DNA of 59,167 bases, counting the filler. It is 6 parts of 6 records of this genome, joined end to end, with 100 filler letters (N's around TTAATTAATTAA, not from the genome) between each part and the next. Parts side by side here need not be neighbours in the genome. Positions count along the whole stretch, not along the records: positions 1 to 12,856 come from DRR723986_14370; positions 12,957 to 17,993 come from DRR723986_14379; positions 18,094 to 23,969 come from DRR723986_14389; positions 24,070 to 33,383 come from DRR723986_14400; positions 33,484 to 42,340 come from DRR723986_14401; positions 42,441 to 59,167 come from DRR723986_14406. The stretch is one strand, 5' to 3'. The position numbers were made by a program, and so were the translations under genes. The notes beneath the pieces were generated by a model. That model was not told the DNA's origin and did not search any database. It worked only from the letters and a program-made list of their open reading frames with translations. Of this stretch, positions 180 to 58,837 are shown piece by piece (the stretch's first letter is position 1; every line of letters begins with the position of its first letter).

Positions 180-2945
180 CTACTGCTTTAACACAAAACG
201 CGTCGCACGTGAAGCGCCATGGCCATGAATTCGTAGGTAATACGTGCCGGAGACCAAAGTGCCGGCCGAATGTTCCCAAAGTAGTTCGCCGCCCTCATGT
301 AATATCTCTGTTGTTAACACAGGCCTGCCGGCAGCATCTACGATTTCAAGTGTGTACTTGCCGGGAGTGTTTAATAAGCCGCGCAGGCTGATTAACTCAT
401 TCGCCGGGTTCGGGCTGATTGCCAGCTTGCCATCAGCGACTTTGCTTGTGGACTCGTTAACCGCAACCGTGGCGGCACTTAACAGGCTTGTTTTCCAGAT
501 GCCGCGGCCAAAGGTGCCCGCGTACAATATGCCGGACGCGCTGTTAATCTCAAGGTCGTTAACCGGAATCTGCGGCAGCCCCTGTCCCAGCGGCTGCCAG
601 GCCAACATGTCATTCTTACGATAGAACACGCCAAAGTCGCTGCCAACATACGTGATGCCGCCATTGGGGCCGCTATGATGCTCAATCGCATTCATCGGAA
701 CATTCGGCAGGTCGTAAGAAATGTTTTCCCAGGTGGCGCCGCCGTCCTGACTTGTGTAGACTTTTTTGCCATCCGAAAGATGTGAACAAACCAGCCAAAT
801 GCGGTCTGCGTCATTGGCGTCAATTGCCATGTCGTTGTAAAAAACAAATGGCGGCAGATTGTCACTGTTAAGCTCTGTCCAGTTAACACCGCCATCCTGA
901 CTGCGATAAACCTGCGCGCTAATATTGAGTTCGGCAATTGGCCGCTTGCTCAAATACATCACGTCCGGATTGGAAGGCGCAATTACCATCGAGCGGATCG
1001 CCGGGGAAGGCACGTTGCTGCGTGCCGGCGGAAACGACGAGAGTTTAGTCCAGGTGTCACCAGTATTGTCACTGCGGTACAGATCGGAGAGAGGCGCAAA
1101 AACGACGTCGGCATCACCAGGATGTTCGTAGAGGTTCGTGAGAAAGGGTTTTTCCTGCAGCGGATCCTGCGCCCAGGCCTGGTTAACATTGCGATAGTTG
1201 CGCCCGGCGTCGCTTGTCTTTAAAACGCCGCCATACTGCAGCGTCACCAAAAAAGTGCTTGGCTTTTCGCGATGAATATAGCCGTCACCACCATCGCCTG
1301 GATAAACCAACTGCCAGCCTTCCATAGAATGCATGTATGAGCCGTTATCCTGCGCGCCACCAAGCACAATCTCGTCCTGGCCGGGGATTAACATAATGCG
1401 GTAGAATTCGGAAATTGCCAGGCCGCTGTTGAGATTTGTCCATTTGGTAGGCAATGTGTAACACTCTGAATTGGGCGAAAACAGCCCCGGCAGAGTACTT
1501 CCTTTAAAACACTTGGTCAACTCACTGGTGCTGCCAATTTCGAGTTCTTCGGTGACGTCCACGCCGCCGTCGTGCAAAACATAAACTTTGCCGTCGAGTG
1601 GATTGTGCGTGATTTCATGATGGTCATTGTTAACACTCTGCCCAAATGCGTCCTGCCAGAAGCTGCACATATTAAAGGTTTCGCCGCCGTCATCCGAGCC
1701 CCAGATATTGATTGCGCCAACAAAAACGCGTTCAGCATCCGCAGGGTCAACAAACAAGGCCAGATTGTAAAATGCCTGTCCGCTGGCCATATCGCTAAAC
1801 AGTGGGGAGCCATTGAAATAACCAAAGATGTTCACATTGTCGGCAATTGAGCTTTGCAGTACCCAGGAGAGCCCGCCATCGTCACTGCGTAGCAAAGAGT
1901 GGAATGCCGTGTTTTGTTGCGCACGCACCGCGTAAATAATATCTGGATTGGAGGGCGCCAGAGCCAACTCAATGCGCAGAACGCTGTTGTCCTGCAAGTT
2001 GCCAAGGTTGCGAAACTGCCACGTGCGGCCCGCATCAGTCGAATACATGATACGCCGAATACCAAAAGCTGTGGCGGCATGTAAAACGTTGCCATTGCGC
2101 GGATCGCGTTCCAGGTCAAAAACGGCCTGGTCGGAACTGCGCGTCCAGGTCTGGCCCGCATCTTCGCTGATGAAAACTCCGTTGCTGCCGGCTGCGGTCA
2201 GCAGGGCACTGTTGTCCGGATGGATCAGAATGCGTGACATCGTTCCAACCTCGGCTCCGCCCAGACTGGTACGTTCCCAGGTAATTCCCGCGTCCAGGCT
2301 ACGCCACAGGCCACTCGCAAAATTTGCATTGCCACCGTTGGCGGAGTGATTCAGGAGCATCAGATCCTTGTCCCCCGTGGCGGCATAGATGAGATTGGGG
2401 GTGCGTGGGTCTATCGCCAGGTCTCCCAGCCGCAGAGACGCTAGATCATCACCGCGCGGTGTCCAGCTCGCCCCGCCGGTGCGCGTCTCCCAGATACCGC
2501 CGCTGGAGGCACCAACCAGGAAGACGTCGGGATCCGTCGGGTGGAAAACAATGCAGTTCGTGCGTCCCATGCCCGAAACGGGCGCGTCGAGCAGCGAAGG
2601 CGGTTGATTCAGCGGCCCCACAGGCGTCCAGACGTCCTCAGCCAAAATACCATCCGGCCGCGCCTTGGCGCGTTTACTGTTAACATGCCGCTGCGCGGCG
2701 TCCAAATACTCAGCGCTGTAAATATTTCCATCTGCATCCATGCGCTGCTCGCCAAACCAAACGAGGCGCTTGTAGGGATTGGAGCGCTCCAGACCTGCGC
2801 GATATTCTGCGGACACAGCCGCATCAATGTGTGGCGCCGGCATTGGACTGCCGTCATTGCCGGCCTGCAGGCCCATATTTCCAAGTACACAGCATACAAA
2901 CAGACCTAAACACAGCCGACCTGTGTTCGTAAAAAATGCGTTCAT
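180..2945 (-). CDS. T9SS-secreted BNR/Asp-box (VPS10-like) beta-propeller protein
   Basis: Signal peptide, many SxDxGxTW Asp-box repeats (RSLDAGITW, SEDAGQTW, SDDGGLSW, SQDGGATW), and a C-terminal T9SS type A sorting domain (ISPNPANE...LVSGTYYLRI). Confidence 0.85.
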   Translation of the reverse strand: MNAFFTNTGRLCLGLFVCCVLGNMGLQAGNDGSPMPAPHIDAAVSAEYRAGLERSNPYKRLVWFGEQRMDADGNIYSAEYLDAAQRHVNSKRAKARPDGILAEDVWTPVGPLNQPPSLLDAPVSGMGRTNCIVFHPTDPDVFLVGASSGGIWETRTGGASWTPRGDDLASLRLGDLAIDPRTPNLIYAATGDKDLMLLNHSANGGNANFASGLWRSLDAGITWERTSLGGAEVGTMSRILIHPDNSALLTAAGSNGVFISEDAGQTWTRSSDQAVFDLERDPRNGNVLHAATAFGIRRIMYSTDAGRTWQFRNLGNLQDNSVLRIELALAPSNPDIIYAVRAQQNTAFHSLLRSDDGGLSWVLQSSIADNVNIFGYFNGSPLFSDMASGQAFYNLALFVDPADAERVFVGAINIWGSDDGGETFNMCSFWQDAFGQSVNNDHHEITHNPLDGKVYVLHDGGVDVTEELEIGSTSELTKCFKGSTLPGLFSPNSECYTLPTKWTNLNSGLAISEFYRIMLIPGQDEIVLGGAQDNGSYMHSMEGWQLVYPGDGGDGYIHREKPSTFLVTLQYGGVLKTSDAGRNYRNVNQAWAQDPLQEKPFLTNLYEHPGDADVVFAPLSDLYRSDNTGDTWTKLSSFPPARSNVPSPAIRSMVIAPSNPDVMYLSKRPIAELNISAQVYRSQDGGVNWTELNSDNLPPFVFYNDMAIDANDADRIWLVCSHLSDGKKVYTSQDGGATWENISYDLPNVPMNAIEHHSGPNGGITYVGSDFGVFYRKNDMLAWQPLGQGLPQIPVNDLEINSASGILYAGTFGRGIWKTSLLSAATVAVNESTSKVADGKLAISPNPANELISLRGLLNTPGKYTLEIVDAAGRPVLTTEILHEGGELLWEHSAGTLVSGTYYLRIHGHGASRATRFVLKQ

Positions 2946-3091
2946 GATATCTGACCTTTCTAATGAGTCAATTGACGGGATTCGAACCGGCGCTTGGTCG
3001 GCGAGCGGTTGCGCCCGGCGTTTGTGTGTGGAGCGTTACCGACTATACGTGCCAGGTGTGTGCAGTGAATTTACGTCCTGTGCCGTGCAGA

Positions 3092-4075
3092 TTAGTGGCA
3101 ATTCTTGCGAAATTGCAGCGGGCTCGTCCGATAAACGCGGCGGAAGGAGCGGCAGAAAGCCTGCAGGTCAGCAAAACCACTGTCGTGGGCTATGTCTGAG
3201 ATCGATTGTGTGCTGTGACGCAGGCGTAGCTCGGCCGCGGCCAGTCGGCGATGAATCAAGTACTGGTGCGGCGTCATGCCAAATGCATCTTTGAAAGTAC
3301 GCAGGAAGTGAAATTCAGATAACAGCGCTGTTGCGGCCAGAGTTTTTAAGTCGTGATCGGCAGTTGTATCATCGTCAATAAGCTCGCGTGCGCGGCGCAC
3401 GCGGCGGAACAACTCTTCCCGTGTGCCGCTGCGGCTTGCACTGATCGATTCCATGCTGGAGCGAATGTTAAGTTGTGTGCTGATTAACACGGACGCGGTT
3501 TCAACAAAAAATTCGGGCGGCAGGAAACAGCGCAAAGCGCCCTGGCGCTGAATTGCGAGTCCCAGGCCCTCCAGTATCTGACCGAGCTGATCATAACGCG
3601 TGCTGTAAATGTCTTCGTGCAAGCCGGGCAACTCGCTACTGCGGGCAGCATCTGGTCCACTATCCAGCAGGCTTTCGTGCGTGGCACGCAGGCCGTGATA
3701 AATACTGCGGGTCAATTCATTAGAGAAATATATACAGGCGCCGCGTGCCGTTTTTGTGTTGTGGAAATCAATGTCCAGCGCGCGGCCGGCATTCAGCAGG
3801 AGGTATCTGTTCTGCTTGACCTGCATGAGCTGATTGTTAACAATGTATTGTTCGCAGCCGTCCATCACCCATTTTAGTGAGAGACCGGCGTATTCTTCGC
3901 CGGCAGTTATCTGGTTAAACTCGGAGTAAATAACCGCATTGGTAGTCGCGGCCCAATTGCCGTTAAATGGGGTCGGATCCAGTGTCTGCAGCCTTGTGAC
4001 GGTCTGCGCCTGGAAGCGTCCACGGTCGAAATAGGTGCCGTAGTCATATCTGGGGTTGTCGGGTTTGGTCTGCAT
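3092..4075 (-). CDS. AraC family transcriptional regulator
   Basis: C-terminal double HTH (LSEFHFLRTFKDAFGMTPHQY...ISDIAHDSGFADLQAFCRSFRRVYRTSPLQFRK). Confidence 0.9.
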   Translation of the reverse strand: MQTKPDNPRYDYGTYFDRGRFQAQTVTRLQTLDPTPFNGNWAATTNAVIYSEFNQITAGEEYAGLSLKWVMDGCEQYIVNNQLMQVKQNRYLLLNAGRALDIDFHNTKTARGACIYFSNELTRSIYHGLRATHESLLDSGPDAARSSELPGLHEDIYSTRYDQLGQILEGLGLAIQRQGALRCFLPPEFFVETASVLISTQLNIRSSMESISASRSGTREELFRRVRRARELIDDDTTADHDLKTLAATALLSEFHFLRTFKDAFGMTPHQYLIHRRLAAAELRLRHSTQSISDIAHDSGFADLQAFCRSFRRVYRTSPLQFRKNCH

Positions 4076-4182
4076 AATGCATGCAGACAGAACCAGAGAC
4101 TGAAAAGTTACGGTCGTTTATGACGTGGCGAGCCGTGTCATGCATCGCAGCCGGATCTGTTGCGTCGGCAGCAAGGTCGTTT

Positions 4183-5649
4183 TCAGCGTTTTGCAGGTGC
4201 CACATATCTGGGGTTGGGCTGCTGCGGGATTTTAGCGCCGACTGATTTTAGCCAGGCGCGCAGTTTGTTGTTTAAGGAGTTTGCAGTGCTCCTTGACTGT
4301 TTGGCCAGGTCACGTGTTTCGGCAATGTCCTCGGCTAGATTGGCCAGGCGCAGCGAATTATCCTCAAAGTTTAGCGTTAACTTGTAGTCGCCGCGGCGGA
4401 TGACGGCTCCGGGCCTGCCGTTAAAGTTTCTGCCGGATTCCAGACTGCCTTCCACGTAAGCCGGAAAGAACCAATACAGTTCGCGTTCAGGTGAAGCTTC
4501 AGCACCAACCTCATTGAGTTTTAGGGCCTGTCCGTCGAGTTTTAATCTACCCGTCTTGAGATCTGCAATTGCGGCGACAGTTGGAAAAATGTCAATTCCA
4601 CTAATCGGCACGTCGCTTTTGCCGGGTGCAACAGTCCCCGGAAATGTTAAAACAAATGGCGTGCGCAGGCCACCTTCGTAGAGCGATCCTTTACCGCCGC
4701 GTAAAGGTCCAAGTGAGCTGTAGCGCGGATCACCACCGTTATCGGATGCCAGAATAATCAGCGTGTGTTCTGTTAAGTCAAGCCTGTCAAGTTCTGCGCG
4801 TATGCGCCCCACGCTTCTGTCTACGGCTTGCACCATAGCGGCATAAGCCAGTGTGAATTCATCTGCGTAAGGATAGCGTTTTTTGTACAAAGAATAAAGA
4901 TCATTGCGCGCAGCAAGTGGCGTACGCACGGCAAAATGTGAAAGATAGAGGAGAAATGGCGCCTTGCGGTTGGCGCGCATAAATAGCAGCGCCTCAGTTG
5001 TTAAACGGTCGGTTAAGTATTCGTCGGCCTGTCCGTCTTTGAGGTTCGGCAGTTTGTAAGGCGCAAAATAGGAAGTGACTTTTCCGCTGCTGTTGCCGCC
5101 AACGTTAAAGTTAAAACCCTGTGTTTTGGGGTCGTCGCCCAGGTGCCATTTGCCGATGCTGGCGCAGGTGTATCCGGCCTTTTGCAGGAACTCTGCGATT
5201 GTCACGGCTTCGGGAGCAAGTGTTCTGCGGCTCTGCGGCGTTAACAGTTTGCGCGCGTTATCTGGTCCGCGATCGGATTTGCCACTTGTTAATATTCCGT
5301 GGCGCGTCGTGTGCTGTCCCGTTAATAGAGAAGCGCGGCTGGGAGCGCCTACCGGAGCGTTTGCGTAGGCGTTTGTGAATATTCTGCCCGCAGCCGCCAG
5401 CTTGTCGATATGCGGCGTGCGTGTAAATTTATTGCCCATAAAACCCAGGTCCTGCCAGCCCAAATCGTCAACATAGATTATGATGACGTTCGGTTTGGGT
5501 TTGTTTTGGGCCTGTGTGCTGAGCGGCACAATGCCGAGGCCGAGGATTAACAGGAGGCAAAAATTGAGCCGGGCTCGCAGCTTGTGGATTGTGTCTAAAC
5601 AACTAACAAGATGGTTTTTGCAGGGAAGGGAGCATGTATGCGACCTCAT
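4183..5649 (-). CDS. Sulfatase-family protein with a non-canonical active site (true start may be slightly downstream)
   Basis: KPNVIIIYVDDLGW, GKWHLG, SDNGG and GKGSLYEGGLRTP motifs; the signature reads GAPSRASLLTG instead of C/S-x-P-x-R. Confidence 0.85.
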   Translation of the reverse strand: MRSHTCSLPCKNHLVSCLDTIHKLRARLNFCLLLILGLGIVPLSTQAQNKPKPNVIIIYVDDLGWQDLGFMGNKFTRTPHIDKLAAAGRIFTNAYANAPVGAPSRASLLTGQHTTRHGILTSGKSDRGPDNARKLLTPQSRRTLAPEAVTIAEFLQKAGYTCASIGKWHLGDDPKTQGFNFNVGGNSSGKVTSYFAPYKLPNLKDGQADEYLTDRLTTEALLFMRANRKAPFLLYLSHFAVRTPLAARNDLYSLYKKRYPYADEFTLAYAAMVQAVDRSVGRIRAELDRLDLTEHTLIILASDNGGDPRYSSLGPLRGGKGSLYEGGLRTPFVLTFPGTVAPGKSDVPISGIDIFPTVAAIADLKTGRLKLDGQALKLNEVGAEASPERELYWFFPAYVEGSLESGRNFNGRPGAVIRRGDYKLTLNFEDNSLRLANLAEDIAETRDLAKQSRSTANSLNNKLRAWLKSVGAKIPQQPNPRYVAPAKR

Positions 5650-5657
5650 GATCAGCT

Positions 5658-6590
5658 TCAGTCCTCCCTTGTCGGCCTGGCTTTTTCAGGCAGGTTTTTG
5701 TTAGTATCGCTGTTAACTTCCAAGGGCAGGGGCAATGGGCCACGAATGTTTAAGTCGCGCTGTGGGAATGGAATCTCAATGCTGTGTTTGCGGAATGAAC
5801 GAACAATTGCAATGTTGAGATCGGACTTCACAAACGGGTGACGCGTCGGGTCGTCAATCCAGCAGAGTAAACGCATGTCCCAGGACGAATCGCCAAAGCT
5901 TCTGAGTAAAACATCCGGTGCTGGTGCTTTTAACACTTCCGGGTGCTCCTCTGCTACCTCGCGCATTACACGTATCACCAGGTCTATGTCCGAGCTGTAA
6001 GACACTCCGACGTCCACGTTAAGGCGGATACGCGATTCATTGTACGACCAGTTAATAACGTGTTTTTGTACAAAATCCAGATTCGGCACGATGATCGAAA
6101 TATTGTCCAGCGACCGGATCGTGGTGGCACGCATCTTAATTTCCGTAACGTCACCTTCCAGATCGTTAACAGTTACGCGGTCGCCCACCTGCACCGGTCG
6201 TTCGAAAAGAATGATGAGGCCGGAGATAAAATTGGACGTAATATTCTGTAAACCAAAACCGATACCAACTGAGAGAGCACCGAATACGACTATTAAGCCA
6301 CTCAGGTCTATACCCACAAACTGGAAGGCGACGACCGCCCCAATTGTTAGGAAAAAATATGTGAACAGTCGCAGGTAGGTGTACTGGCGTCCTTCCTCAA
6401 TCCCGAGTCGCTGTAAAACACGCCGTAAAACGAGGCGTTTAATCAGGCGGTTTAACAGGAGGAAACCCGCAAAAACGCAGATATAAATCAGAACCGTCAG
6501 GAAGTTGATTGAAGTTTCGCCCAGCACAAAAAGCTCATCGGTCAAAAACTGAGAGCTCTCACTCAGTAGATCGGGAATATCGAGGTCCAT
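5658..6590 (-). CDS. Small-conductance mechanosensitive channel (MscS family)
   Basis: GALSVGIGFGLQNITSNFISGLIILFERPVQVGD and IEIPFPQRD motifs. Confidence 0.93.
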   Translation of the reverse strand: MDLDIPDLLSESSQFLTDELFVLGETSINFLTVLIYICVFAGFLLLNRLIKRLVLRRVLQRLGIEEGRQYTYLRLFTYFFLTIGAVVAFQFVGIDLSGLIVVFGALSVGIGFGLQNITSNFISGLIILFERPVQVGDRVTVNDLEGDVTEIKMRATTIRSLDNISIIVPNLDFVQKHVINWSYNESRIRLNVDVGVSYSSDIDLVIRVMREVAEEHPEVLKAPAPDVLLRSFGDSSWDMRLLCWIDDPTRHPFVKSDLNIAIVRSFRKHSIEIPFPQRDLNIRGPLPLPLEVNSDTNKNLPEKARPTRED

Positions 6591-6716
6591 GAATCTGTTG
6601 TATATCCTATATTTCTGATGCCGGTATGCTAGTGCTCAGGAGGCCAAAAACGACGCAGCCTGAAAAGCGCAAGAACGGTCAAGGTGACCGATAGGCAATT
6701 TAGCTAATTTGAGGGT

Positions 6717-7781
6717 ATGCGTAACAGTAGTCATTCAGTATATATGCAGCGTTTAGCGCAGGTGGAGCAGTTTATCGCTCAAAATCTGGATCGCGAATTC
6801 GATTTGGAGGAATTGGCGCGCCTGGCCTGCTTTTCGCCCTTTCATTTTCATCGGATTTTTGCAGCCGTCAAAGGCGTCAGCGTGGGCGACTACGTGCGCC
6901 GCCTGCGACTGGAGCGCGCTGCCCACATGTTGTTAACCAGTCGGCGTAGTGTGGCGGATATTGCGGAGGCGGCATGTTATGCCAACCACGAGTCGTTCAC
7001 ACGTGCCTTTGGGCGGCGTTATGGCATGTCGCCCGCTGCCTGGCGGCGCGCGGGAGTTGACAGCTCCGAACTCGAAGGCGGGCTGGGTGCTGCCTGGCTT
7101 GGCGCTGAGTCTGCCGGTGAAGAGGATTCCGCATCTCAGGTGATTCCCACGATTCCTGCACAGGCGGCGGGCCCGCCGCCACAGGAAAACGTGGAGTTCC
7201 CGAGTGCCATCATCCATCGTCCGGCCGCAACGATGTTTGCCATGCGGCACGTGGGGCCTTACTGGACGGTGGGGCAGACCTGGCAGGCTCTGTTTGCGCG
7301 TCTGCAGGAATGCAAAATTGATGTTGCCGCCTGCCGCTTATACGGCATGCCGCATGATGATCCGGCAGTAACCGAAGCGCAGGTTTGTCGCTACGACGCC
7401 TGTGTTGCACCCGGCGGAACTGACCGGCCTGCAGTTAGCGAAGCGCAGGCTGGTGGGGCAGAGGCAGCAAGCCGCCAGGTCGCCTGGCCCGAATGCGGCC
7501 TGGAGCGTATCGACATTCCTGCGGGTGAGTTTCTGGCGGTGGAGTTCCGCGGCCTGATCCAGCAAATCGCGCGCGCATATGTCTTCATGTTTGGCCAGTT
7601 GCTGCCCTCAATTGGCCGGGTTCCGGCTGACATTCCAGTGATCGAGGAATACCAGCAGGGAGCCGAAAATCCGCGTGGACCGATGACGGTGCAGATACTG
7701 TTGGCGCTGGAGCCGCTAAGCACAAAACGTGAATCAACAAGCAAAATAAAGGACCAATACGATGGAAACGACAATGCGTGA
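6717..7781 (+). CDS. AraC family regulator with C-terminal GyrI-like effector-binding domain
   Basis: N-terminal HTH (LARLACFSPFHFHRIF...FTRAFGRRYGMSP) and GyrI-like motifs (RHVGPY, HDDPAVT..CRYDACV). Confidence 0.9.
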   Translation: MRNSSHSVYMQRLAQVEQFIAQNLDREFDLEELARLACFSPFHFHRIFAAVKGVSVGDYVRRLRLERAAHMLLTSRRSVADIAEAACYANHESFTRAFGRRYGMSPAAWRRAGVDSSELEGGLGAAWLGAESAGEEDSASQVIPTIPAQAAGPPPQENVEFPSAIIHRPAATMFAMRHVGPYWTVGQTWQALFARLQECKIDVAACRLYGMPHDDPAVTEAQVCRYDACVAPGGTDRPAVSEAQAGGAEAASRQVAWPECGLERIDIPAGEFLAVEFRGLIQQIARAYVFMFGQLLPSIGRVPADIPVIEEYQQGAENPRGPMTVQILLALEPLSTKRESTSKIKDQYDGNDNA

Positions 7782-8400
7782 GAAAGTAGACTTTAAGAAG
7801 CGCGACAAACACCTGTACAAGGCAGTGGCCGATAAAATCACGGTGCTCGATGTACCCGAAATGTCCTTCCTGGCAGTCAACGGTTTTGGCGGTAACCCCG
7901 CTGAATCGGAAGTCTTTGCCGGAGCCATCGAGGCACTCTACGGCTATGCGTACACGCTCAAGTTCATGTTCAAAGAAATTGATGACCCGCACATCTACGA
8001 CTTTGTGGTGCCGCCGCTTGAATGCCTGTGGTGGAATACCGACGAAGAGCCCGACAACAACGATCCCTCCAAGATGTACTGGCAATTAATGGTGCGTCAG
8101 GCCGAGTTTGTCAACCAAGCCTTTGTAGATGAAGCTACCGAAAAATTGCGCGCCAAAGGTAAGCTGAACGAGAATATACAGGTGGCGTTGACGAGTTATG
8201 CCGATGGGAAGGCCGCACAGCTTCTGCATTTGGGCCCCTACAATAACGAGCTGGAAACGATCAAAAAACTCAGGGAACTCACCGCTGAGGCCGGCCTGGA
8301 GATGGGCTGTAAACACCATGAAATCTACCTTTCGGATCCGCGTCGCGTGGCACCCGAAAAACTCAAGACAATTATCAGATACCCGATAACTCCCGCCTGA
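7762..8400 (+). CDS. GyrI-like small-molecule-binding domain protein
   Basis: FVVPPLECLWW, LHLGPY and HHEIYLSDPRRVAPEKLKTIIRYP motifs; overlaps the end of the upstream gene. Confidence 0.88.
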   Translation: METTMREKVDFKKRDKHLYKAVADKITVLDVPEMSFLAVNGFGGNPAESEVFAGAIEALYGYAYTLKFMFKEIDDPHIYDFVVPPLECLWWNTDEEPDNNDPSKMYWQLMVRQAEFVNQAFVDEATEKLRAKGKLNENIQVALTSYADGKAAQLLHLGPYNNELETIKKLRELTAEAGLEMGCKHHEIYLSDPRRVAPEKLKTIIRYPITPA

Positions 8401-8843
8401 GCAGATTTGCAGATAGTTCGGCGGCAGCCAAACCCTTGAATCACATGATTTAAGGCTGCGGCCTGCCGCCTGCCTGTCTGAACAAACGCGCAAGCTCCCG
8501 GCAGCCGGCATTTAGTGGATTGGGGCACCGCTGACTTGACTGCCTAGAGTGGTTTACACACCTGTTAATGCCGAACTTTGCGCAGCCGTTCAGCTGCTGT
8601 TGAGGGCGCCGGTCCATAGAAGCAGCGATAACTACCACACTTTCTGGCCGCCTTCGCAAGACGGAATGTGGTTTTTAGGGTCTATACTTTCGTCCAGGTA
8701 AACCTTACCCTCGATTGCTTGCGGAAAACTCTGCTGCGGCGCCACGCCCTTGGATTGCCGTGATTGGAGTCTTCCGCGCCCCTTGCCACCCTATAGATGT
8801 CTTCTTGACGATGGGGTAGGCTGTCGGCACCCGTCTGCTTAGT

Positions 8844-50080: not shown

Positions 50081-50109
50081 TGTATCTCTTCCAAGTGTTA
50101 ATGGGTTGT

Positions 50110-50123: not shown

Positions 50124-50224
50124 GCGTGTAGTGTGCAGGCATGGCTGGGATAGAGCGCGGACGTGTTTACGTGCTGGCCGCATGGCCGAGTTGTGGAATG
50201 CCGCACGTTGGCACTCCGGCAGCG

Positions 50225-50644: not shown

Positions 50645-50748
50645 TCTCCTATATGTTCTGCGTGGATGCAGATGTTGTGTAGCCTTGCTGCCAATCTTCA
50701 TTCGCGCTCATGGAGTACACCAATCGCATATGGTAAGCCCGTGGAAGT

Positions 50749-50834
50749 GGCGGGACCGCACCATGCCGTGCAGTGTGGCACGGCACGGCCCGCCCGCTCC
50801 TAGCTGGAGTAGATTATTCCTGTGTTATGTTAAC
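50749..50834 (-). repeat. Structured upstream element, copy 1
   Basis: Ungapped 57-nt match to 51583-51639 plus a conserved hairpin. Confidence 0.65.
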
Positions 50835-51068
50835 ATTCTGTGTAGTCTGTCAAGTAAGCAGATGCACCAACTGGCGCTGCGACCGGGCGTCGATCTCTAT
50901 CATCGTGACATTGTCGGCACCGCTGCGTACCGCGAACACAGGGTTCGAATGCATGCGTGCCTGGGCATAACAGTAGAATTGTTAAGCGATTGTGTTTTCT
51001 TCATAGATTCACCGTGTTTAAGTGCTAAGGCCGATTTGTTGGCAGCACCGCTGCTGCGGGGTAACGCC

Positions 51069-51470
51069 TTAGTGCTGGTCTTTCGGCAGCCAGCGGTTCC
51101 AGAACTCAGCGTACTCGCGCATGAAATACGTTAGTTGCCGGTGAATCTGACTGTCGTCCTCCGGGATATCCGGCAGAGCCAGAATGGTTGCATTAGACAT
51201 CAGGCCACGGCTGCAGTGAGCGTAGCCTGTCCAAATCAGCGCGCAGGGCAGTCCACCGTCAAACGTTCCGATTGTCATGACCCTGCCCTCGTCGTCCTTG
51301 AGCGTCAGGAACACCGTTTGGTCGCCCGCGTCCGCCGCCTCGATCACGGCACTGGAATCCACCTTGCGAAACGCGCTGGACTCCGGGGTTTCACGCACGA
51401 GGCGCAGCAGGCGCTCTGCCATTTGCCGTCGCTGAACTTCTGGAACGTCGTTTGATTCACTCTTCTGCAT
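51069..51470 (-). CDS. Hypothetical protein
   Basis: ATG at 51470 (MQKSESND...) with GGGGA upstream. Confidence 0.6.
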   Translation of the reverse strand: MQKSESNDVPEVQRRQMAERLLRLVRETPESSAFRKVDSSAVIEAADAGDQTVFLTLKDDEGRVMTIGTFDGGLPCALIWTGYAHCSRGLMSNATILALPDIPEDDSQIHRQLTYFMREYAEFWNRWLPKDQH

Positions 51471-51554
51471 ATTCTTGTCCCCGCGAATGTGTTGTTGTAC
51501 TGTCACTACGGTGCAGGCGGAAGTCTCCGCCGCCCCATGCCGAGTAAAGCCACG

Positions 51555-51639
51555 GACCAGGCCGCACCACAACCACAAAAGGGCACGGCGCAGCCTGCCG
51601 GCTCACTATTGGAGTGGATTAATCCTACATTGTGTTAAC
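51555..51639 (-). repeat. Structured upstream element, copy 2
   Basis: Matches 50749-50834. Confidence 0.65.
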
Positions 51640-51680
51640 TACATCAGAATGTAATCAGGGGCGTGCAATATCCAGTGTTG

Positions 51681-52268
51681 TCATACTGCTGTTTCCTTCC
51701 TTGTAGTTGCGCACATTCTATCGATCAGTTGTACCGCCGAAGGACCGATTGGTATCGGTACTTCCAGCTCGGCACGCCCATTGGGCTTGACATCAATGCC
51801 AACGTCTGTACTCTCAATCCGGAAGCAAAAGTATTTCCGTTCATTGTGCCGACGGTCGGTCATGTTGCTGGAATCAGCCGAAACAACGTGTAGCCAGTGT
51901 AAGCAGCGTAGATGCTCTACCGGAATTGGCGCGGGTTCGGGTTCCGGCAGCGGGCTGCTCAGTACATGGCGAGCATATGACCTGAACCGGCGGAGTATTT
52001 CCTTCAGGATTCGTTCTGCGCCGAGCGCAATCGGGATGCTGACATCGACGGAACGATCCTCTTCTTCCGGCAGGGTAACCTGCACCCGGAGCATGTATCC
52101 GCCACGGATGGACAAAACACGGAACTCCGCCCCCGTACGCACGAGGGCGACCTCCGACAGACATGTGGAGACTGCCGGTATCCAATCTGTGCCCGTCTCT
52201 GCATCGCACTGTGATAATAGTGCGTTGAGGCAGGCCTCCGCCGTCAGGCCAATATTCGTGAAGCTCAT
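51681..52268 (-). CDS. Hypothetical protein, family D copy 2
   Basis: IPIALGAERILKEILRRFRSYARHVLSSP vs LPLFAGPEVVRDTIIERFSEFAQRPLPSP in 54793..55443. Confidence 0.7.
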   Translation of the reverse strand: MSFTNIGLTAEACLNALLSQCDAETGTDWIPAVSTCLSEVALVRTGAEFRVLSIRGGYMLRVQVTLPEEEDRSVDVSIPIALGAERILKEILRRFRSYARHVLSSPLPEPEPAPIPVEHLRCLHWLHVVSADSSNMTDRRHNERKYFCFRIESTDVGIDVKPNGRAELEVPIPIGPSAVQLIDRMCATTRKETAV

Positions 52269-53099
52269 CTATTTCACTCCTGTAGGTCGTTGCGATTCGG
52301 CAAGCAAGGCATGAACCAATTGCAGCATGATGCTATCGGGAGATTCACACGCCTCAGGCGCCACTCCTTCGGTCTGCCATGTGCGCAACTTGCCAAGGGT
52401 ATACTCAAGAGACGGCGGCCGATTCGTGCCGGGGTACTGCACATAGAATTTCAGGTTGCATACCACATCCACGACAGTGCCGATACCGCCATACATTGCC
52501 TCGACGTATGCTTTTGCCGCCGCCGGGTCCGGCGCGGGGCTCTCAGAATCGCACTCCTCGCTCAGGAACATGGGAGCTGCTTCCTGCGGTGCCGCCGGGC
52601 TTTCTACTACGTCATCCAGTATGATTGGAAGCGGACTGCGTACCTGCAGATAGAACCGTCCGTCGCGCTCTTCCCAGGCAAATACCTGCTCCGGGCATGG
52701 CTTCATGGTCAACCGCTGCAGGAACTGGTATGGACCTTCGGGCGTATCGGGCGCGCGCTCTATGTCGCGATGGACGCCTTCGGCCCACCGGATGTGTCGC
52801 AGGAAACTCTCACGCCCCGCTTCGCCTCGAAGGTCACATTCCAGCGGCGGAACCACGTGGCAAGTATCGATGACACTGCCGCTGCGGCAGAACACCTTCA
52901 CGATGACCCGCCAGGAGAGCAAGTCATCGTGAAACGCATCAATTACCACGCGCGCTCCTGACGGCACATCCCAGAGTGCCAGTGAGTCTTCATACCCATC
53001 GTCTGTAGCAGAGCGAGCTTCAAGGCGCTCACGCAGAACGTCCAGTGCTGCGTCCAGTTGTTCGGGTGTCGGAACGAGCGTTCCCATTATCGTTGCCAT
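52269..53099 (-). CDS. Hypothetical protein, family B copy 2
   Basis: LVPTPEQLDAAL / DLRGEAGRESFLRHIR / PSLEYTLGKLRTWQTEGV match 55440..56237. Confidence 0.75.
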   Translation of the reverse strand: MATIMGTLVPTPEQLDAALDVLRERLEARSATDDGYEDSLALWDVPSGARVVIDAFHDDLLSWRVIVKVFCRSGSVIDTCHVVPPLECDLRGEAGRESFLRHIRWAEGVHRDIERAPDTPEGPYQFLQRLTMKPCPEQVFAWEERDGRFYLQVRSPLPIILDDVVESPAAPQEAAPMFLSEECDSESPAPDPAAAKAYVEAMYGGIGTVVDVVCNLKFYVQYPGTNRPPSLEYTLGKLRTWQTEGVAPEACESPDSIMLQLVHALLAESQRPTGVK

Positions 53100-53769
53100 T
53101 GGCAGGTTTCTCCGTGTGTGTTTGTAGTCCCAGTTCAGCGATAGTGCCTACCTCATGCAGCAGTTCAGCTCCGCCGCAGATTTCCACTATCAGGTGATTA
53201 CCTGAAGTGCAGCGCCTTCCGGATATCTCTATTCCGTCGCCCGTCATCGTGAAGGTGCCGGTGTTGCCTTTCAGCTCAAAACCCTGCCTGCGTGCCACGG
53301 CATGCAGCTGTTTCCAGAAGAGTGCTTTCCGGACCAGATGTTCAATGTCGGTCCACAGAATTGTTTCCACTTCGCTGTACTGCTGATGCTCGCCCTTGTT
53401 TTTTGCCTCACCCAGGATGAAGCGCTTTACATGGTAGCGCAGCTGGCCGGGAGTTCTGGCTGGTTTTAACTCCTTGCGCGCCCTCCACCGCGGAGACTGT
53501 GTGAATCCCAACATACGTTCACCCTCGTACTCGATTTCAATGAAGTTCCCAGCCGAATGCAGGGCCGAACGACTGTGCCGAACCCTGAAGAGAGCCGGTC
53601 CCGCCGACAGGTAGAATACTGTATCACCGGGAGCCACTGAAATCGAATTGGAACGCGCCGGGAACGCTTCATCAGCAGCTGCAAGACAGATAGTTGCCAA
53701 CTCGTGCAACTTATCCGGCGTGCTGCCATAACTGACTATCATGCTTTCGATCATCTCATTGGCAGACAT
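53029..53769 (-). CDS. Hypothetical protein, family C copy 2 (start MSANEM at 53769)
   Basis: GAGGAGG SD; GQLRYHVKRFI and GTFTMTGDGIEISGR..NHLIVEI match 56234..56929. Confidence 0.75.
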   Translation of the reverse strand: MSANEMIESMIVSYGSTPDKLHELATICLAAADEAFPARSNSISVAPGDTVFYLSAGPALFRVRHSRSALHSAGNFIEIEYEGERMLGFTQSPRWRARKELKPARTPGQLRYHVKRFILGEAKNKGEHQQYSEVETILWTDIEHLVRKALFWKQLHAVARRQGFELKGNTGTFTMTGDGIEISGRRCTSGNHLIVEICGGAELLHEVGTIAELGLQTHTEKPANGNDNGNARSDTRTTGRSTGRSA

Positions 53770-54649
53770 GTGCAGCCTCCTCGGTCGTCTGGTCGTTCCA
53801 TGTAGCAATGGATGCATACATCGAAGCCATTGCCAGGTATCCCAGCGTCTGCACGCGCCGCGCCGCCACACCTGTGTCGTACTGCTCCGGCAGTACGGCG
53901 CGGTACGCATCGGCATGCATCGACAGTGATTCAAATTCAGCGAAATTGAGCCACCATGCCGGGGTTGACCATAGGCAGTAGAACAGCATGCCGACATCCG
54001 CTGCGTTTGCATCCAGCACTTCGGTCAGTAGCTCGGCGGCCTTATCTGCGTGCTCAGCAGCAGCTGTGCCTGGGCTGCCGCTCGTCTCGGCGCTCACCGC
54101 AGTGTCCTGCTCACCATAGGCAAGGGTAAGCAGGTCACCTGCGCAGTTGCGAGTGCGCAGAGAGTAGCGGCCGTCGCCGGACTGCTCATACTGAAAAAAC
54201 GCAGTGGGCATCGAGAGCAGACGCTGGAAAAACACGTGCTGCACCAGATGCAGACTACTGCGGTTCAGCTCCTTGCGTGCCAGACGCAGGCACAGCGTGT
54301 GGAAGGGGTAGAGAAACTGCCGGCGGAATTGCGGCAGCGTCGGGGCATGCCCGGCTTTGAACGTGCACGCATGAATCGAACGCTCTTCGCTGCCATGGCT
54401 CGACGCATAGACAGGCCGCAATCCGGCAACGTGCACATCGCCATTCTCCAGAAGGTCTATCACGACAATCAGGCAGCCTCCGGCAAGGTAGCGCAAGCGC
54501 CGCAGTTCCAGGTGCCCAGGTGTAAGCTGAGCAGACAGGCGGTCATAATTGCCCGCCGTTGATGGCTCATACATTCCTAGCTGCCGCATGACATCCGAGA
54601 AATGCAACGCCGATACCTCCCAGGCGGGGGGGGCTTCCATCGTTTGCAT
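53756..54649 (-). CDS. Hypothetical protein, family A copy 3
   Basis: FLYPFH, FFQYEQSGDGRY, LFYCLWSTPAWW, HADAY. Confidence 0.75.
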   Translation of the reverse strand: MQTMEAPPAWEVSALHFSDVMRQLGMYEPSTAGNYDRLSAQLTPGHLELRRLRYLAGGCLIVVIDLLENGDVHVAGLRPVYASSHGSEERSIHACTFKAGHAPTLPQFRRQFLYPFHTLCLRLARKELNRSSLHLVQHVFFQRLLSMPTAFFQYEQSGDGRYSLRTRNCAGDLLTLAYGEQDTAVSAETSGSPGTAAAEHADKAAELLTEVLDANAADVGMLFYCLWSTPAWWLNFAEFESLSMHADAYRAVLPEQYDTGVAARRVQTLGYLAMASMYASIATWNDQTTEEAAHVCQ

Positions 54650-54792
54650 ACTATCCTCACAAAATGATGATTGGAATATTGCCCGGTACTATGGGCCGTT
54701 TTATTGAAACGCGGCATGCCGCGACCGGGCATACTACAATAGCAGTATGCTTGTATCCGGCGCAGGTGCTGCCGTTGAACTGATGGTAATTC

Positions 54793-55443
54793 CTATGCTG
54801 CAGGGGGCTCGGTCGCCTGCAAAAGACGCTGCAGAAGAGCGCCTGCAAGTGCCGGGTCTGCAAGCGTAACGGTAGCTCTAATAGACTCACTGGTGCCCAT
54901 CACCAGTTCAGCAAAACCACCGGCGACAGGTAGAGAACATGTAATTGCCCGGCCGGTGTCGCACTGCCATCCTTCCCGAGTGCGTCTGAATCGCTTGCCG
55001 AGTGCTGTGTGAAACTGTTCATCGCCGCGATGCAGCAGCGTGTGCATGACTCCAATCGGCATGAATCCGCCGACCTGCAACTCATTCCGGTGGGAGTACC
55101 GGCCCGCTGCGCTATCGCGCAACGGGGCATCAGGACTGGGCAGGGGGCGCTGCGCGAATTCCGAGAAGCGCTCAATGATCGTGTCACGGACTACTTCCGG
55201 GCCCGCAAACAAGGGCAGAGCTTGTTGTGGGACTATTTCGTTGCGTGCGTTCCGTTCTGTTGTATACACTTCCTCGTCAAACACTGCCGTGATATACTCA
55301 CCGCCATCGGGAGCACTGAGACCGACCGCTTTGTCCTGACGTGATAGCATAGGCACCCAGGTTTCGCACCCAAGACTGGAGAGTCTCTGATGCAGAAGCG
55401 GGAAGAACGACAGCTCGGCATCCAGTAATTGGGATAGCGTCAT
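54793..55443 (-). CDS. Hypothetical protein, family D copy 1
   Basis: 4-nt overlap with family B copy 1; paralog of 51681..52268. Confidence 0.7.
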   Translation of the reverse strand: MTLSQLLDAELSFFPLLHQRLSSLGCETWVPMLSRQDKAVGLSAPDGGEYITAVFDEEVYTTERNARNEIVPQQALPLFAGPEVVRDTIIERFSEFAQRPLPSPDAPLRDSAAGRYSHRNELQVGGFMPIGVMHTLLHRGDEQFHTALGKRFRRTREGWQCDTGRAITCSLPVAGGFAELVMGTSESIRATVTLADPALAGALLQRLLQATEPPAA

Positions 55444-56237
55444 ATCTGCACCTGCCCTTCGAGTTCTCCGGCCAGTAAGAGGCGGCTGGTGATCATGTGA
55501 ACCAGCTCAGTGGGCTGCGGAAGACTGCCTGTGCCAACTCCGCCGGTAGCCCACAGATGCAACTTCTGGCCCAGAGAGCGTAACGACGGAATCCGGTCCC
55601 AGGCTGCAGGTACGCTGTTTAACCGTTCAAACGCAACCATAGCCTCGCAGATCATCGCGCTCATTCCGCTCACAGTTTGCAGCATGTACAGCGAGGTGTC
55701 CTGCGCTGTGTCCAGGTTCTGAGCCTGCAGCGCTTCGGCGGTAAAGAATGCCGCATGCTCGCCAAGGATCAGCTCACTCATTGGTCCAAGGTGGAGTTTC
55801 GATGTGTCACCATGTTGGTTCCACTGAACCAGTGCTTGGGGATTGTCAAGCAGTGGCTTAAACAGCGTTGCTGCGGAAACCGGCCACGCGGCAGCACCCT
55901 GTAAACTCGCCCAGAGTTCTTCCTGCAACCTGATATGTGTTATGAGCTGCTGCCTGCCGTGCATGTCCCGCAGGGAGAGCGGTTTTTCCTCACCCAGCTC
56001 CAAGCCGCTGAACACACTGTTTTCCGGCCCGGAAATCCGAATGCGCATTGACCACGAGTACCAGCCGAAGTGCAAGGGCAGAATATCCACGACCAGGCCA
56101 TACCGCATGCGCCACCGCACAAATGCCATTGTATTACGTTCTACTGCGAGCGGTTCCGCTGCCAGCTCACGTGCGCAGAATTCCAGAGCGGCGGCCATTT
56201 CCAGAGGCGTAGGAACGATACTTGCCGAGAGTTTCAT
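55440..56237 (-). CDS. Hypothetical protein, family B copy 1
   Basis: IVPTPLEMAAAL / SLRDMHGRQQLITHIR / PSLRSLGQKLHLWATGGV. Confidence 0.75.
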   Translation of the reverse strand: MKLSASIVPTPLEMAAALEFCARELAAEPLAVERNTMAFVRWRMRYGLVVDILPLHFGWYSWSMRIRISGPENSVFSGLELGEEKPLSLRDMHGRQQLITHIRLQEELWASLQGAAAWPVSAATLFKPLLDNPQALVQWNQHGDTSKLHLGPMSELILGEHAAFFTAEALQAQNLDTAQDTSLYMLQTVSGMSAMICEAMVAFERLNSVPAAWDRIPSLRSLGQKLHLWATGGVGTGSLPQPTELVHMITSRLLLAGELEGQVQI

Positions 56238-56929
56238 CGTTGCTCCTTGTCACCTGGTTTGTAGCAGTTTGACCTGTTAACATTGGGCAGGAGAGCCTTT
56301 ATCAGCTCTTCACCCTTGCCGTCCAGCTCTACCGTAAGTTGATTGTTCGCATCCCAACGGCCGGAGATATCATACCCACGCCCGGTCAGCGTAAAGGACT
56401 TCCCGCTGCAAGTAAAACGTACGTTGTTGGTTGCCGCAAAGCCATGTACTTGCTGCAATGTTAACAGCATCGGTATATGCTCAACTACAGGGCTGGCGGA
56501 GCGCTCCTTCAGCGTGTAATGCAAGTTGCGATGTAAGGCTGGAACATGTTTTTTCAGGTACAAACGCATACTATGTCGCAGCTGCCCGGCGCTCCGTTTA
56601 AGATAGAGAACCTCAGATTTCATGCCGCCTGATCGTGACATGAGCGTATCGTCCGCATCCAGGTGTTTGCATTCATTACGGGCCCGCACAAATGCTACCT
56701 GCAGTTCGGATGAGTATGGCAGATGTTCGACCACGGTCAGATGATTTTCGATTAACAGAAAGCGGCGGTTGGTTTCGTGAAGTGGTTTTGCCACTTCAAC
56801 ATACCTGTCCGGAAATACCTGCAGTGCTGCTTCAAGCAGTAACTGTTCAATCGGCTTCCACCGGCTTTCTGTTGCACCGCCGGACACGTACGCGCCGCCG
56901 GTGCTGCTTGCGTCGTCAGTCTGTATCAC
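56234..56929 (-). CDS. Hypothetical protein, family C copy 1
   Basis: LLEAALQVFPDR, GQLRHSMRLYL, KSFTLTGRGYDISGR..NQLTVEL. Confidence 0.75.
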   Translation of the reverse strand: MIQTDDASSTGGAYVSGGATESRWKPIEQLLLEAALQVFPDRYVEVAKPLHETNRRFLLIENHLTVVEHLPYSSELQVAFVRARNECKHLDADDTLMSRSGGMKSEVLYLKRSAGQLRHSMRLYLKKHVPALHRNLHYTLKERSASPVVEHIPMLLTLQQVHGFAATNNVRFTCSGKSFTLTGRGYDISGRWDANNQLTVELDGKGEELIKALLPNVNRSNCYKPGDKEQR

Positions 56930-57842
56930 CGGTTTCCTCCGTCAATGTTGTTGAAGCTGTAACTGCAGAACACCGCAGCACGTCGGTGTTGGCTGTCAGA
57001 ATCGAAGTGATTGCTGCCTGATACAGCTGCGCCAGTACGAGCACACGTTCTGTCTCACGTGCCGTACCTGCTGCGCCATGATGGGACTGAGTGTAGGCTT
57101 CGGCATGCGCGTGCAGGGGACGCAGCGGCACAAACTGCGGCCACCAGGCCCGGTTACACAGCAGTTCGTATGCAATCCGCCCAGCGGTAGAATTTTCTGG
57201 CTGCCCGATCGCATGGTCGAACAGCTTCCACTCTGCTACCGGCTTATCAAGCCCTGCTATCTTGTGCGCCCGCTGCGCATCAGGAGCATCCCACACAGGA
57301 AACTCCAGCGGGTACTGCAGGCGCAGAAGCTGAAGGCAAGGATTTGCATGCAGCAAATGCACCCGGCCATTGTCCCGGCACTCAAAGCCAAAGAATTCAC
57401 TCGGTTGATGCAGCATCCGCCGCCCCAACGCAAGCAGCGCAGCTTCGGGAATCACAAGTGACTCCTGCAACCTGCAGAGAATCGCTGCATGGAATTTCGT
57501 GAGAAACGTGTTAACAAACTCCTGCGGCGTAACAGTATGGCAGTTAAAACTCCATTCCGCAAGCGGTGCCGGTTGCTGCACGGCACTAAGGTGAGTAATG
57601 CGTGTTAACCTGCCTCCAACATGTACCATCGAATTCGGAGCCCATGAGAACGTTACCGGACACAGCCCGGCAGCATCATAACAGACGTGATGCTGCGTAA
57701 AGTCACGATGGACGTCAAGCGTGTCCAGGGTGAGCGGGGCAGAAGTATCAGCGGCAGAATACATCGGTATGGGGGCCATCAATTCCGCAATTTTCTCCGT
57801 TGTGTGCTTCCAGTTTGAACGGTCCTTGTCAGCTTGTGTCAT
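56916..57842 (-). CDS. Hypothetical protein, family A copy 2
   Basis: FLTKFH, FFGFECRDNGRV, IAYELLCNRAWW, HAEAY; AGGAGA SD. Confidence 0.75.
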   Translation of the reverse strand: MTQADKDRSNWKHTTEKIAELMAPIPMYSAADTSAPLTLDTLDVHRDFTQHHVCYDAAGLCPVTFSWAPNSMVHVGGRLTRITHLSAVQQPAPLAEWSFNCHTVTPQEFVNTFLTKFHAAILCRLQESLVIPEAALLALGRRMLHQPSEFFGFECRDNGRVHLLHANPCLQLLRLQYPLEFPVWDAPDAQRAHKIAGLDKPVAEWKLFDHAIGQPENSTAGRIAYELLCNRAWWPQFVPLRPLHAHAEAYTQSHHGAAGTARETERVLVLAQLYQAAITSILTANTDVLRCSAVTASTTLTEETGDTD

Positions 57843-57940
57843 AGAGCGGGTTCTCCTATTGTTTAACTGTGTTGTTTAACCGAATGTTTCCGCAATTGAT
57901 CGTCGTACTGCATCAGCGCCTGGGCCGTCCGGAGACGCGC

Positions 57941-58837
57941 TCAGATAGTTGTGTTAATGACAGCTTGCATGGTAAGTGCGCGCAGACTGGCCAGATTGCG
58001 TTCACACGTCGTCACCTGATCGGGGCCACATGGAACGACCTGCGAAAACTCAATCATAGCCTGCGCAGGCTGAAACGGTCGTATCAGGTGCCACCATGAA
58101 TGGTCACTAAGCCAGTAGTAAAGCAGTGTGGCGTGATGCGGCTTCAGCGATTCGCCGTTGCCGGCCAGAATACGCCCGAGAACATACCAGTGTTGTTGAG
58201 CACCATACTTTACGGTCCTTACCTCGCAGTCCGGGCTCGTATCCCCGGGCGCAGGGGCATACCCTTCAACCGTTAGGAACTCATGTACCAGGTTCTTGCA
58301 GTGGAGATATGCTCCATCGGACTTAAACTCGTACGAGCACAAATTTGCTGATGGCTTGCACAGATATTGAAGTAGTGCGACAGTACTGTCTTTTGCATAC
58401 TCCGGCTGGGACACCTGTATGTCATTTATTATGCTATCATGGAACGTTAACAGACCTTCCATCAACTGCTCTTGAGCACTGCCGGACAGCAGGTCAAGTT
58501 CAAAAGAGTGTTGTAACCACCGTTTAAGCGTAGGTTCCGTCTCTTCGGCACCCTCGAACCTGCATTCTTCTTCCAAAGAGTAACACTCTACCGTTGCGAT
58601 GTCTTCTCCTTCGGGCATATGAAACTCAATGAGTAGGCAGGTAGGCGCCTGGTAACAGAGTTTTGCTGTTGGAGTTGTTGTTAACTCGCACTGTAAAGAG
58701 ACACCCAGCATGCGTGAGTCTTCCGGCTTAATCGCTCCATTCTGTGAATAGACTGATGAGTACCGCTCCATGAGTTGTTGTACCTTCGCAGTTGATTTCA
58801 CCGTATAATTATCGGCACTGTTAGTCTGCATAGTCAC
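57941..58837 (-). CDS. Hypothetical protein, family A copy 1
   Basis: LLTFH, LCSYEFKSDGAY, LLYYWLSDHSWW. Confidence 0.7.
   Translation of the reverse strand: MTMQTNSADNYTVKSTAKVQQLMERYSSVYSQNGAIKPEDSRMLGVSLQCELTTTPTAKLCYQAPTCLLIEFHMPEGEDIATVECYSLEEECRFEGAEETEPTLKRWLQHSFELDLLSGSAQEQLMEGLLTFHDSIINDIQVSQPEYAKDSTVALLQYLCKPSANLCSYEFKSDGAYLHCKNLVHEFLTVEGYAPAPGDTSPDCEVRTVKYGAQQHWYVLGRILAGNGESLKPHHATLLYYWLSDHSWWHLIRPFQPAQAMIEFSQVVPCGPDQVTTCERNLASLRALTMQAVINTTI

Follow-up and report, generated by a model that had tools for sequence, protein, structure and literature searches.

Genes and composition of the six contigs

The window analyzed here is a stretch of 59,167 bases made up of six contigs, joined by spacers that each consist of 44 N, TTAATTAATTAA, and another 44 N. 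Our subject is the palindromic hexamer GTTAAC, which occurs 41 times in the window (18, 1, 0, 2, 1, and 19 times in contigs 1 to 6) and is enriched in contig 1 (1-12856) and contig 6 (42441-59167), a feature that the original prediction had likened to the highly iterated palindrome HIP1 of cyanobacteria. Contigs 2 (12957-17993), 3 (18094-23969), 4 (24070-33383), and 5 (33484-42340), which together span 12957-42340, serve as an internal control.

Contig 1 encodes, on the minus strand, a BNR/sortilin-repeat protein of 921 amino acids (aa) (180-2945; Sortilin-Vps10, 7e-28, and BNR), whose gene contains 7 GTTAAC sites, and, on the plus strand, a surface protein of 1320 aa with a CHU_C-associated Ig domain (8844-12806; Ig_7, 1.3e-30) and 5 sites. 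A sulfatase, an MscS channel, and AraC regulators are further products of the contig. Residues 843-920 of the 921-aa protein match TIGR04183, the type A sorting domain of the type IX secretion system (T9SS), with 26.5 bits at a curated cut-off of 23, and the nearest relatives of the sulfatase are mostly from Bacteroidota (37-47% identity). The gene content of contig 1 points to a Bacteroidota-like source, with the 921-aa T9SS protein as the taxonomic anchor. Among the genome contigs, the closest protein relatives reached 29% identity for the BNR protein and 47% for the sulfatase; among metagenome contigs, the best match of the BNR protein had 33% identity.

Contig 6 carries a tyrosine integrase, a predicted methyltransferase, and many open reading frames (ORFs) without a family match; a search of 23 contig 6 ORFs with PHROGs and NCBIfam returned the methyltransferase and the integrase only. 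The tyrosine recombinase/integrase, encoded on the minus strand at 47646-48680 (Phage_integrase, 8.3e-8; phrog_1 integrase, 9.9e-11), makes it probable that contig 6 is an integrative element. Viral contigs contained no match for the integrase or for ORF 53029-54012 of the block described below. In composition, contigs 1 and 6 have the highest correlation of tetranucleotide z-scores of all contig pairs (r 0.60), and both are rich in TTAA (4-6 per kb, compared to 0.6-1.4 per kb in the other contigs).

The genes of contigs 2-5 are of a proteobacterial type. Contig 4 has a cluster of a type VI secretion system with VipA, two VipB, ImpA, PP2C, TagF, and IcmF/TssM, contig 3 has fabF-fabG-fabD-plsX, contig 5 has aminotransferase-hom-thrC-recJ, and contig 2 encodes a Hint_2 protein. 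By these genes, contigs 2-5 are judged to be proteobacterial in character, and the window, and with it the bin, is a mixture of at least two organisms. The tetranucleotide profile may even split the window into three groups, namely, contigs 1 and 6, contigs 3 and 4, and contigs 2 and 5. In contig 4, two neighboring ORFs at 24014-26432 are both of the VipB/TssC sheath type; the first (24014-24907) runs into the end of the contig, and therefore, a duplicated or split tssC is indistinguishable from a truncated gene.

GTTAAC counts and Markov expectations

Contigs 1 and 6 together (29,583 bases) contain 37 GTTAAC sites, where 6.08, 5.45, and 7.61 are expected under Markov models of order 0, 1, and 2, respectively. 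This corresponds to a density of 1.25 sites per kb; the reversed control word CAATTG is found 17 times in the same DNA. The original prediction had given 18 sites for contig 1, 19 for contig 6, and about 4 for contigs 2-5, with one site per 4-5 kb expected from base composition. These counts are exact, each of the positions it listed carries the word, and 6.08 sites in 29,583 bases correspond to 1 per 4.9 kb. The run of 18 sites in contig 1 extends from 313 to 12646, in DNA with 6.3 TTAA per kb and a first-order expectation of 2.5 GTTAAC. Taken singly, contigs 1 and 6 have GTTAAC z-scores of 9.7 and 9.5. In the two contigs combined, GTTAAC has the top z-score among all hexamers (z 19) and is the most enriched of the 64 palindromic hexamers, with an observed-to-expected ratio (O/E) of 6.8 and a runner-up at 2.6. 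None of 100 dinucleotide-preserving shuffles of the window reached 41 sites (mean, 6.8; largest, 15).

Contigs 2-5 have 4 sites in 29,084 bases compared to 2.2-5.1 expected and, thus, no enrichment; contigs 3 and 4, which had been singled out earlier for comparison, have 0 and 2 and do not come near the rate of contigs 1 and 6. The confinement of the enrichment to contigs 1 and 6 follows from the mixture of organisms in the window. With higher-order models, the excess shrinks: order 3 expects 19.8 of the 37 sites and so halves it, and order 4 expects 35.3 and absorbs it, because the 5-mers GTTAA and TTAAC are themselves enriched. Altogether, the enrichment of GTTAAC in contigs 1 and 6 is confirmed as real and robust, and it is moderate in size.

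A second palindrome, GTCGAC, is absent from both contigs (0 sites compared to 2.9 expected in contig 1 and 3.7 in contig 6; contigs 2-5, 7 compared to 7.3), perhaps because their common host avoids SalI-type restriction sites. Counts of GTGCAC, GAGCTC, and CGATCG are likewise low in these two contigs.

Coding and noncoding positions

Codon usage does not account for the sites. After synonymous-codon shuffling, the genes of contig 1 retained 4.70 ± 1.86 sites (maximum, 10) of the 18 observed, and those of contig 6 retained 2.31 ± 1.45 (maximum, 7) of the 13 observed; shuffling of codon order gave means of 3.45 and 2.37. In none of the 300 runs of either kind was the observed number reached. Codon- and Markov-controlled counts, the check named in the original prediction, had a divided outcome: the excess survives the codon shuffles and Markov orders 0-2, is halved at order 3, and is absorbed at order 4.

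The sites occupy both feasible reading phases (18 as GTT-AAC and 13 as G-TTA-AC), and 6 are outside called genes, in agreement with the earlier statement that they fall in several frames and in intergenic DNA; the third phase is impossible because it would put a TAA stop in frame. Val-Asn is written GTTAAC in 18 of 27 pairs, and the number of Val-Asn pairs is as predicted from amino acid frequencies (27 compared to 21.3). Similarly, TTA is used in 26 of 58 Leu-Thr pairs, although it makes up only 9-14% of the Leu codons. Outside called genes (3,141 bases), 5 complete sites were found with 0.83 expected, a figure to be read with the reservation that the gene calls of contig 6 are chosen ORFs, most of them without a family match, which makes the division into coding and noncoding DNA approximate there. 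These data show that the bias acts at the level of DNA and is not a codon or dipeptide effect; it is confined to synonymous and noncoding positions.

Sub-words, neighbors, and spacing

Sub-word figures are both-strand counts compared to the maximal-order expectation. The signal starts at the tetranucleotide TTAA, which is present at 1.9-fold, with a count of 298 compared to 178 at maximal order (z 12.4), and continues in GTTAA/TTAAC (145 compared to 108.6; z 6.0). Sorted by the number of G/C flanks (0, 1, or 2), TTAA is present at 1.03, 2.67, and 7.12 times the expectation in contig 1 and at 0.78, 1.89, and 6.56 times in contig 6. Variants with one inner base changed are near 1-fold (GTCAAC, 1.00; GTGAAC, 0.94; GATAAC, 1.18; GGTAAC, 0.96), with GTAAAC at 1.93, and the other members of GTWWAC are unequal (GTATAC, 0.93; GTAAAC/GTTTAC, 1.93). 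Outer variants are raised over the first-order expectation, with GTTAAA/TTTAAC at 3.4-fold, GTTAAG at 1.6-fold, and GTTAAT/ATTAAC at 1.6-fold, and so the earlier remark that one-off variants such as GTTAAA/TTTAAC and GTTAAT are common was correct. A T precedes 21 of the 37 sites and an A follows 19 (12 of 18 each in the GTT-AAC phase alone); apart from this weak leaning to T/A, the sequences around the 37 sites show no relation to one another.

Two simple ways of producing the pattern were simulated. Creation of the hexamer alone left 105 ± 5 five-mers compared to the 145 observed, and none of 200 runs matched the ratio of hexamer to sub-words; this model was rejected. Additive creation of 5-mers produced 27.3 ± 3.9 hexamers compared to 37, with 1 of 200 runs reaching 37, and is nearly rejected. 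The best fit is shown to be a log-additive, two-fold symmetric preference for (T)GTTAAC(A). It requires the TTAA core and increases about 2.5-fold with each G/C flank; the preference for the next T/A flank is weaker.

No 7- or 8-mer of contigs 1 and 6 exceeds its sub-words, and the longer motif TGTTAACA, suggested by the count of TGTTAA, was rejected on this ground. A DNA uptake sequence of the USS/DUS kind (a nonpalindromic word of 9-12 bases) was rejected as well, there being neither an extended consensus nor a 7- or 8-mer excess. Dispersed repeats of the type of repetitive extragenic palindromes or miniature inverted-repeat transposable elements do not fit the unrelated flanks and the location of 31 of the 37 sites inside called genes. 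An oriented chromosome signal of the type of Chi or the FtsK-orienting polar sequences is at odds with a word that is palindromic; the 5-mer halves outside the hexamer lie 26 times sense and 36 times antisense to genes, without a clear strand bias. The spacing of the sites is random and not periodic: the gaps have coefficients of variation of 1.07 (contig 1) and 1.27 (contig 6) compared to about 0.92 for random placement, although 37 sites give this comparison low power.

A block without the word in contig 6

Contig 6 is not uniform. Its left part (43579-51639) has 13 GTTAAC sites and a tetranucleotide correlation with contig 1 of 0.61, and its right part (56276-58685) has 6 sites. Between them lies a 4.6-kb block (51640-56275; GC content, 0.571) with 0 GTTAAC and 3 TTAA, in which the correlation with contig 1 is 0.28 and the TTA share of Leu codons is 0.047. 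Its six ORFs are all on the minus strand, and none had a match in Pfam, PHROGs, or NCBIfam. Its composition suggests that the block was inserted into the element recently. The original prediction that the enrichment is a property of contigs 1 and 6 only is upheld by contigs 2-5, which are at expectation, but has to be narrowed for contig 6, where this block lacks the signature. In any case, the signature tracks the history of the DNA and not the contig.

Predicted methyltransferase of contig 6

A predicted gamma-class N6-adenine methyltransferase is encoded on the plus strand at 45177-47383 by two ORFs (45177-45881 and 45878-47383) that share an ATGA stop/start overlap; contigs 1 and 6 have no other methyltransferase. 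The first ORF contains the S-adenosylmethionine motif DPCCGSGRF and matches mad2 (3.3e-13). The second starts with TNLPF and matches the C-terminal two-thirds of the PADLOC model REase_MTase_IIG (positions 449-847 of 935; 2.2e-20); it had no match among the sequences of solved structures at E values up to 1 and a single match, at 26% identity, among the genome contigs. Type IIG enzymes usually read asymmetric sites, and therefore, the type IIG-like enzyme predicted here is not an obvious candidate for GTTAAC.

Closer inspection of the region revealed four successive ORFs on the plus strand (44164-44577, 44581-45180, 45177-45881, and 45878-47383) that cover about 1070 codons. The first two, which have no family match, are in the same frame with one stop between them, and each following ORF shifts the frame. 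The set at 44164-47383 may represent a single type IIG restriction-methyltransferase gene in fragments, or a system that is multipart by nature.

GTTAAC in other genomes

In loci of at least 5 kb around distant homologs (2.09 Mb; first-order O/E of the 109 loci with an expectation of at least 1), GTTAAC has an O/E of 3.55 at most (median, 0.55), compared to 6.8 in contigs 1 and 6, and the maximum in 54 further metagenome loci (0.59 Mb) is 3.1. Among 401 evenly drawn Bacteroidota genomes, the density of GTTAAC is at most about 0.35 per kb compared to 1.25 here, and GTTAAC outnumbers CAATTG in only 6. For TGTTAACA, none of 401 Cytophagales genomes exceeds about 0.04 per kb, compared to 0.37 per kb here. 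Three of the surveyed genomes have some surplus, at densities far under that of the window: G206 has 1231 GTTAAC and 782 CAATTG in 3.9 Mb, G398 has 71 and 36, and G752 has 18 TGTTAACA and 2 of the control word in 1.9 Mb. Other palindromes can be common elsewhere. TCCGGA is found at 5-6 times the first-order expectation in three loci from metagenome-assembled genomes of low-GC Bacteroidota (17 compared to 3.3 in L059, 18 compared to 3.1 in L067, and 13 compared to 2.1 in L097), and GCCGGC is found 27 times compared to 5.1 in a Sedimentisphaerales locus (L068). Our literature searches returned no description of GTTAAC enrichment, in line with the earlier remark that such a signature was not known to be described for this group.

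Discussion

In sum, the observation behind the original prediction is confirmed, and its interpretation is partly supported. We put somewhat better than even confidence in a reading in which a single uncultured organism of the Bacteroidota type, with a lineage-specific GTTAAC bias, is the source of contig 1 and of most of contig 6, and contigs 2-5 come from Proteobacteria. The original prediction had assigned contigs 1 and 6 to one host of the Fibrobacterota-Chlorobiota-Bacteroidota (FCB) group; the shared composition and the Bacteroidota-like contig 1 support this, but the heterogeneity of contig 6 means that not all of its DNA can be included. In our model, a sequence-specific protein would read both half-sites and thereby leave a symmetric, log-additive pattern 6-8 bases wide. 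It would act genome-wide and over the long term, by weak selection or biased fixation at silent sites, and would be encoded outside the window. Recently arrived DNA, for example, the 4.6-kb block of contig 6, would not yet have acquired the bias.

What the reader might be is a matter of guesses. The first, and a tentative one, is a type II N6-adenine methyltransferase that has HpaI-type specificity and is retained stably, accompanied by a nuclease or as an orphan. Both GTTAAC and GTWWAC serve as N6-methyladenine (m6A) motifs in other bacteria, such as Ralstonia (PMC11460718), and GTTAAC-type methyltransferases are mentioned in PMC8919816; suitable readers hence exist in bacteria. We would back two further guesses more faintly and about equally, namely, another dimeric DNA-binding protein and a pure mutational bias without any protein reader. 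The remaining weight goes to something else.

Several points weigh against the reading of a Bacteroidota-type host whose bias is kept by such a protein. The DNA that bears the signature amounts to only about 25 kb. Contig 6 is placed in the organism of contig 1 by composition alone, its genes being nearly all without a family match, and the genome, metagenome, and viral collections yielded no relative with more than 47% protein identity. The full word (74 on both strands) is not in further excess over the number expected from its own 5-mers (70.6), and therefore, a palindrome-specific reader is not required by the data. In 136 loci of at least 10 kb from other genomes, the best palindromic hexamer per locus reaches a z-score of 9.7 and an O/E of 6.3; the effect size seen here is at the extreme of the ordinary range and not outside it, and peers exist. 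Finally, the possible C-to-T precursors of GTTAAC are nearly absent (both-strand counts; GCTAGC, 0 compared to 12.1; GCTAAC/GTTAGC, 1 compared to 11.1; CTAG, 0.14-fold), and this scarcity of CTAG-type words leaves room for a partial mutational contribution.

A bolder version of our reading would be that the uncultured Bacteroidota lineage carries (T)GTTAAC(A) throughout its genome, at about 1 site per 0.7-0.8 kb, and that the word is kept by a dedicated, two-fold symmetric DNA reader. This reader could be, for example, a stably inherited HpaI-type adenine methyltransferase that marks the chromosome and depends on an increased density of sites to do so. Mobile elements residing in the host would be rewritten in the same way, and word density would then date the residence of a piece of DNA in its host. 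Such a system would be a counterpart of HIP1 beyond the cyanobacteria, with a hexamer as its unit. We consider this version unlikely.

A mutational origin without a reader would work through a context-dependent bias such as C-to-T change, leading from GCTAGC by way of GTTAGC or GCTAAC to GTTAAC. It is consistent with the restriction of the signal to silent positions, with no shift at the amino acid level, and with a signal that starts already at TTAA, in addition to the missing precursors. The mass balance fails, however: the precursor deficits add up to about 22, compared to a GTTAAC excess of about 64 (both-strand counts). Moreover, the depletion of CTAG/CTAA is generic, being shared by contigs 2-5 and 41 control loci, none of which have an excess of TTAA. 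The C-to-T route from CTAG-type words covers at most about one-third of the excess and is a partial contributor at most. To our knowledge, mutational contexts span 2-4 bases and do not produce symmetric, log-additive half-sites of 6-8 bases, which counts further against this origin, and we give it little probability as the whole explanation. A second route, by CpG deamination from GTCGAC over GTTGAC/GTCAAC to GTTAAC, was rejected, with intermediates at 1.00-fold and CpG not depleted (rho 1.09).

Equally, we doubt that GTTAAC is an iterated palindrome in the strict HIP1 sense, in which methyl-directed repair, guided by a host methyltransferase for GTTAAC or its core, would work as a one-way mutational ratchet and let sites accumulate throughout the genome. 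In its favor, the word is palindromic and overrepresented in each feasible phase and in noncoding DNA, the m6A motifs named above are known, a ratchet model for HIP1 is cited in the part of PMC5861425 used here, and a predicted methyltransferase gene is present on contig 6. The HIP1-like character claimed in the original prediction holds to this extent, as an enrichment at the DNA level in coding and noncoding DNA. It does not hold for the strict form. The second-order O/E is 4.9 compared to 15-300, the full word is no more frequent than its sub-words predict, the gaps vary as for random placement, and one-off neighbors are not consumed, the inner ones being near 1-fold and the outer ones enriched. 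The predicted enzyme of contig 6, moreover, is type IIG-like, a kind that usually reads asymmetric sites.

An artefact (codon usage, a repeated element, or another word misread as GTTAAC in assembly or base calling) can be dismissed as highly improbable: the broken methyltransferase region could hint at indel errors and GTCGAC is missing (0 compared to 6.6 sites), but codon-aware nulls leave the excess unexplained, the unrelated flanks exclude a repeat family, errors would alter proteins and yet Val-Asn and Leu-Thr pairs are present in the expected numbers, some 6.6 missing GTCGAC are too few for 31 extra GTTAAC, and the large genes of contig 1 (for 921, 488, and 1320 aa) are unbroken.

If the bias of our preferred Bacteroidota-type host is genome-wide, it would add a case from the Bacteroidota to the few lineages that enrich a palindrome rather than avoid it, and it would point to a GTTAAC-reading protein. 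In practice, GTTAAC sorts the contigs of a mixed bin by origin and flags recently acquired DNA in a mobile element. This value is bounded by about 25 kb of sequence, a moderate effect, and comparable palindromes at 5- to 6-fold in other genomes.

Comparison with known systems

In Escherichia coli, an oligonucleotide skew with CCWGG raised and CTWGG/CTAG lowered has been ascribed to very-short-patch repair. The case described here would be parallel in that an enzyme of repair or modification, acting on a short word, shifts the frequencies of words at silent sites genome-wide by a few fold. In the very-short-patch model, however, one transition neighbor is depleted and the C-containing word is favored, whereas the T-containing word is enriched here, and the precursor deficits cover only about one-third of the GTTAAC excess.

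The orphan m6A motifs GTWWAC/GTTAAC share the very word with contigs 1 and 6, but in the parts of PMC11460718 and PMC8919816 used here, they are not reported to be enriched.

HIP1 (GCGATCGC) of cyanobacteria is 15- to 300-fold over the second-order Markov expectation, with a threshold of about 16 for HIP1-rich genomes, is conserved between genomes and quasi-periodic, and has had a methylation-linked mutational ratchet proposed for it, all according to the part of PMC5861425 on which we draw. Compared to this octamer, GTTAAC is a hexamer that, at 4.9-fold under the same null, is below the threshold, and its spacing is random, as far as 37 sites can tell. A word of the HIP1 type would also have to exceed its sub-words as a full palindrome, whereas GTTAAC is no commoner than its 5-mers predict. 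Cognate methyltransferases are known for HIP1, whereas contigs 1 and 6 carry only the predicted type IIG-like enzyme. The likeness is, hence, a loose one. What the two have in common is an excess of a palindrome at the level of DNA, in all feasible coding phases as well as in noncoding DNA, that is not explained by codon usage and is specific to a lineage.

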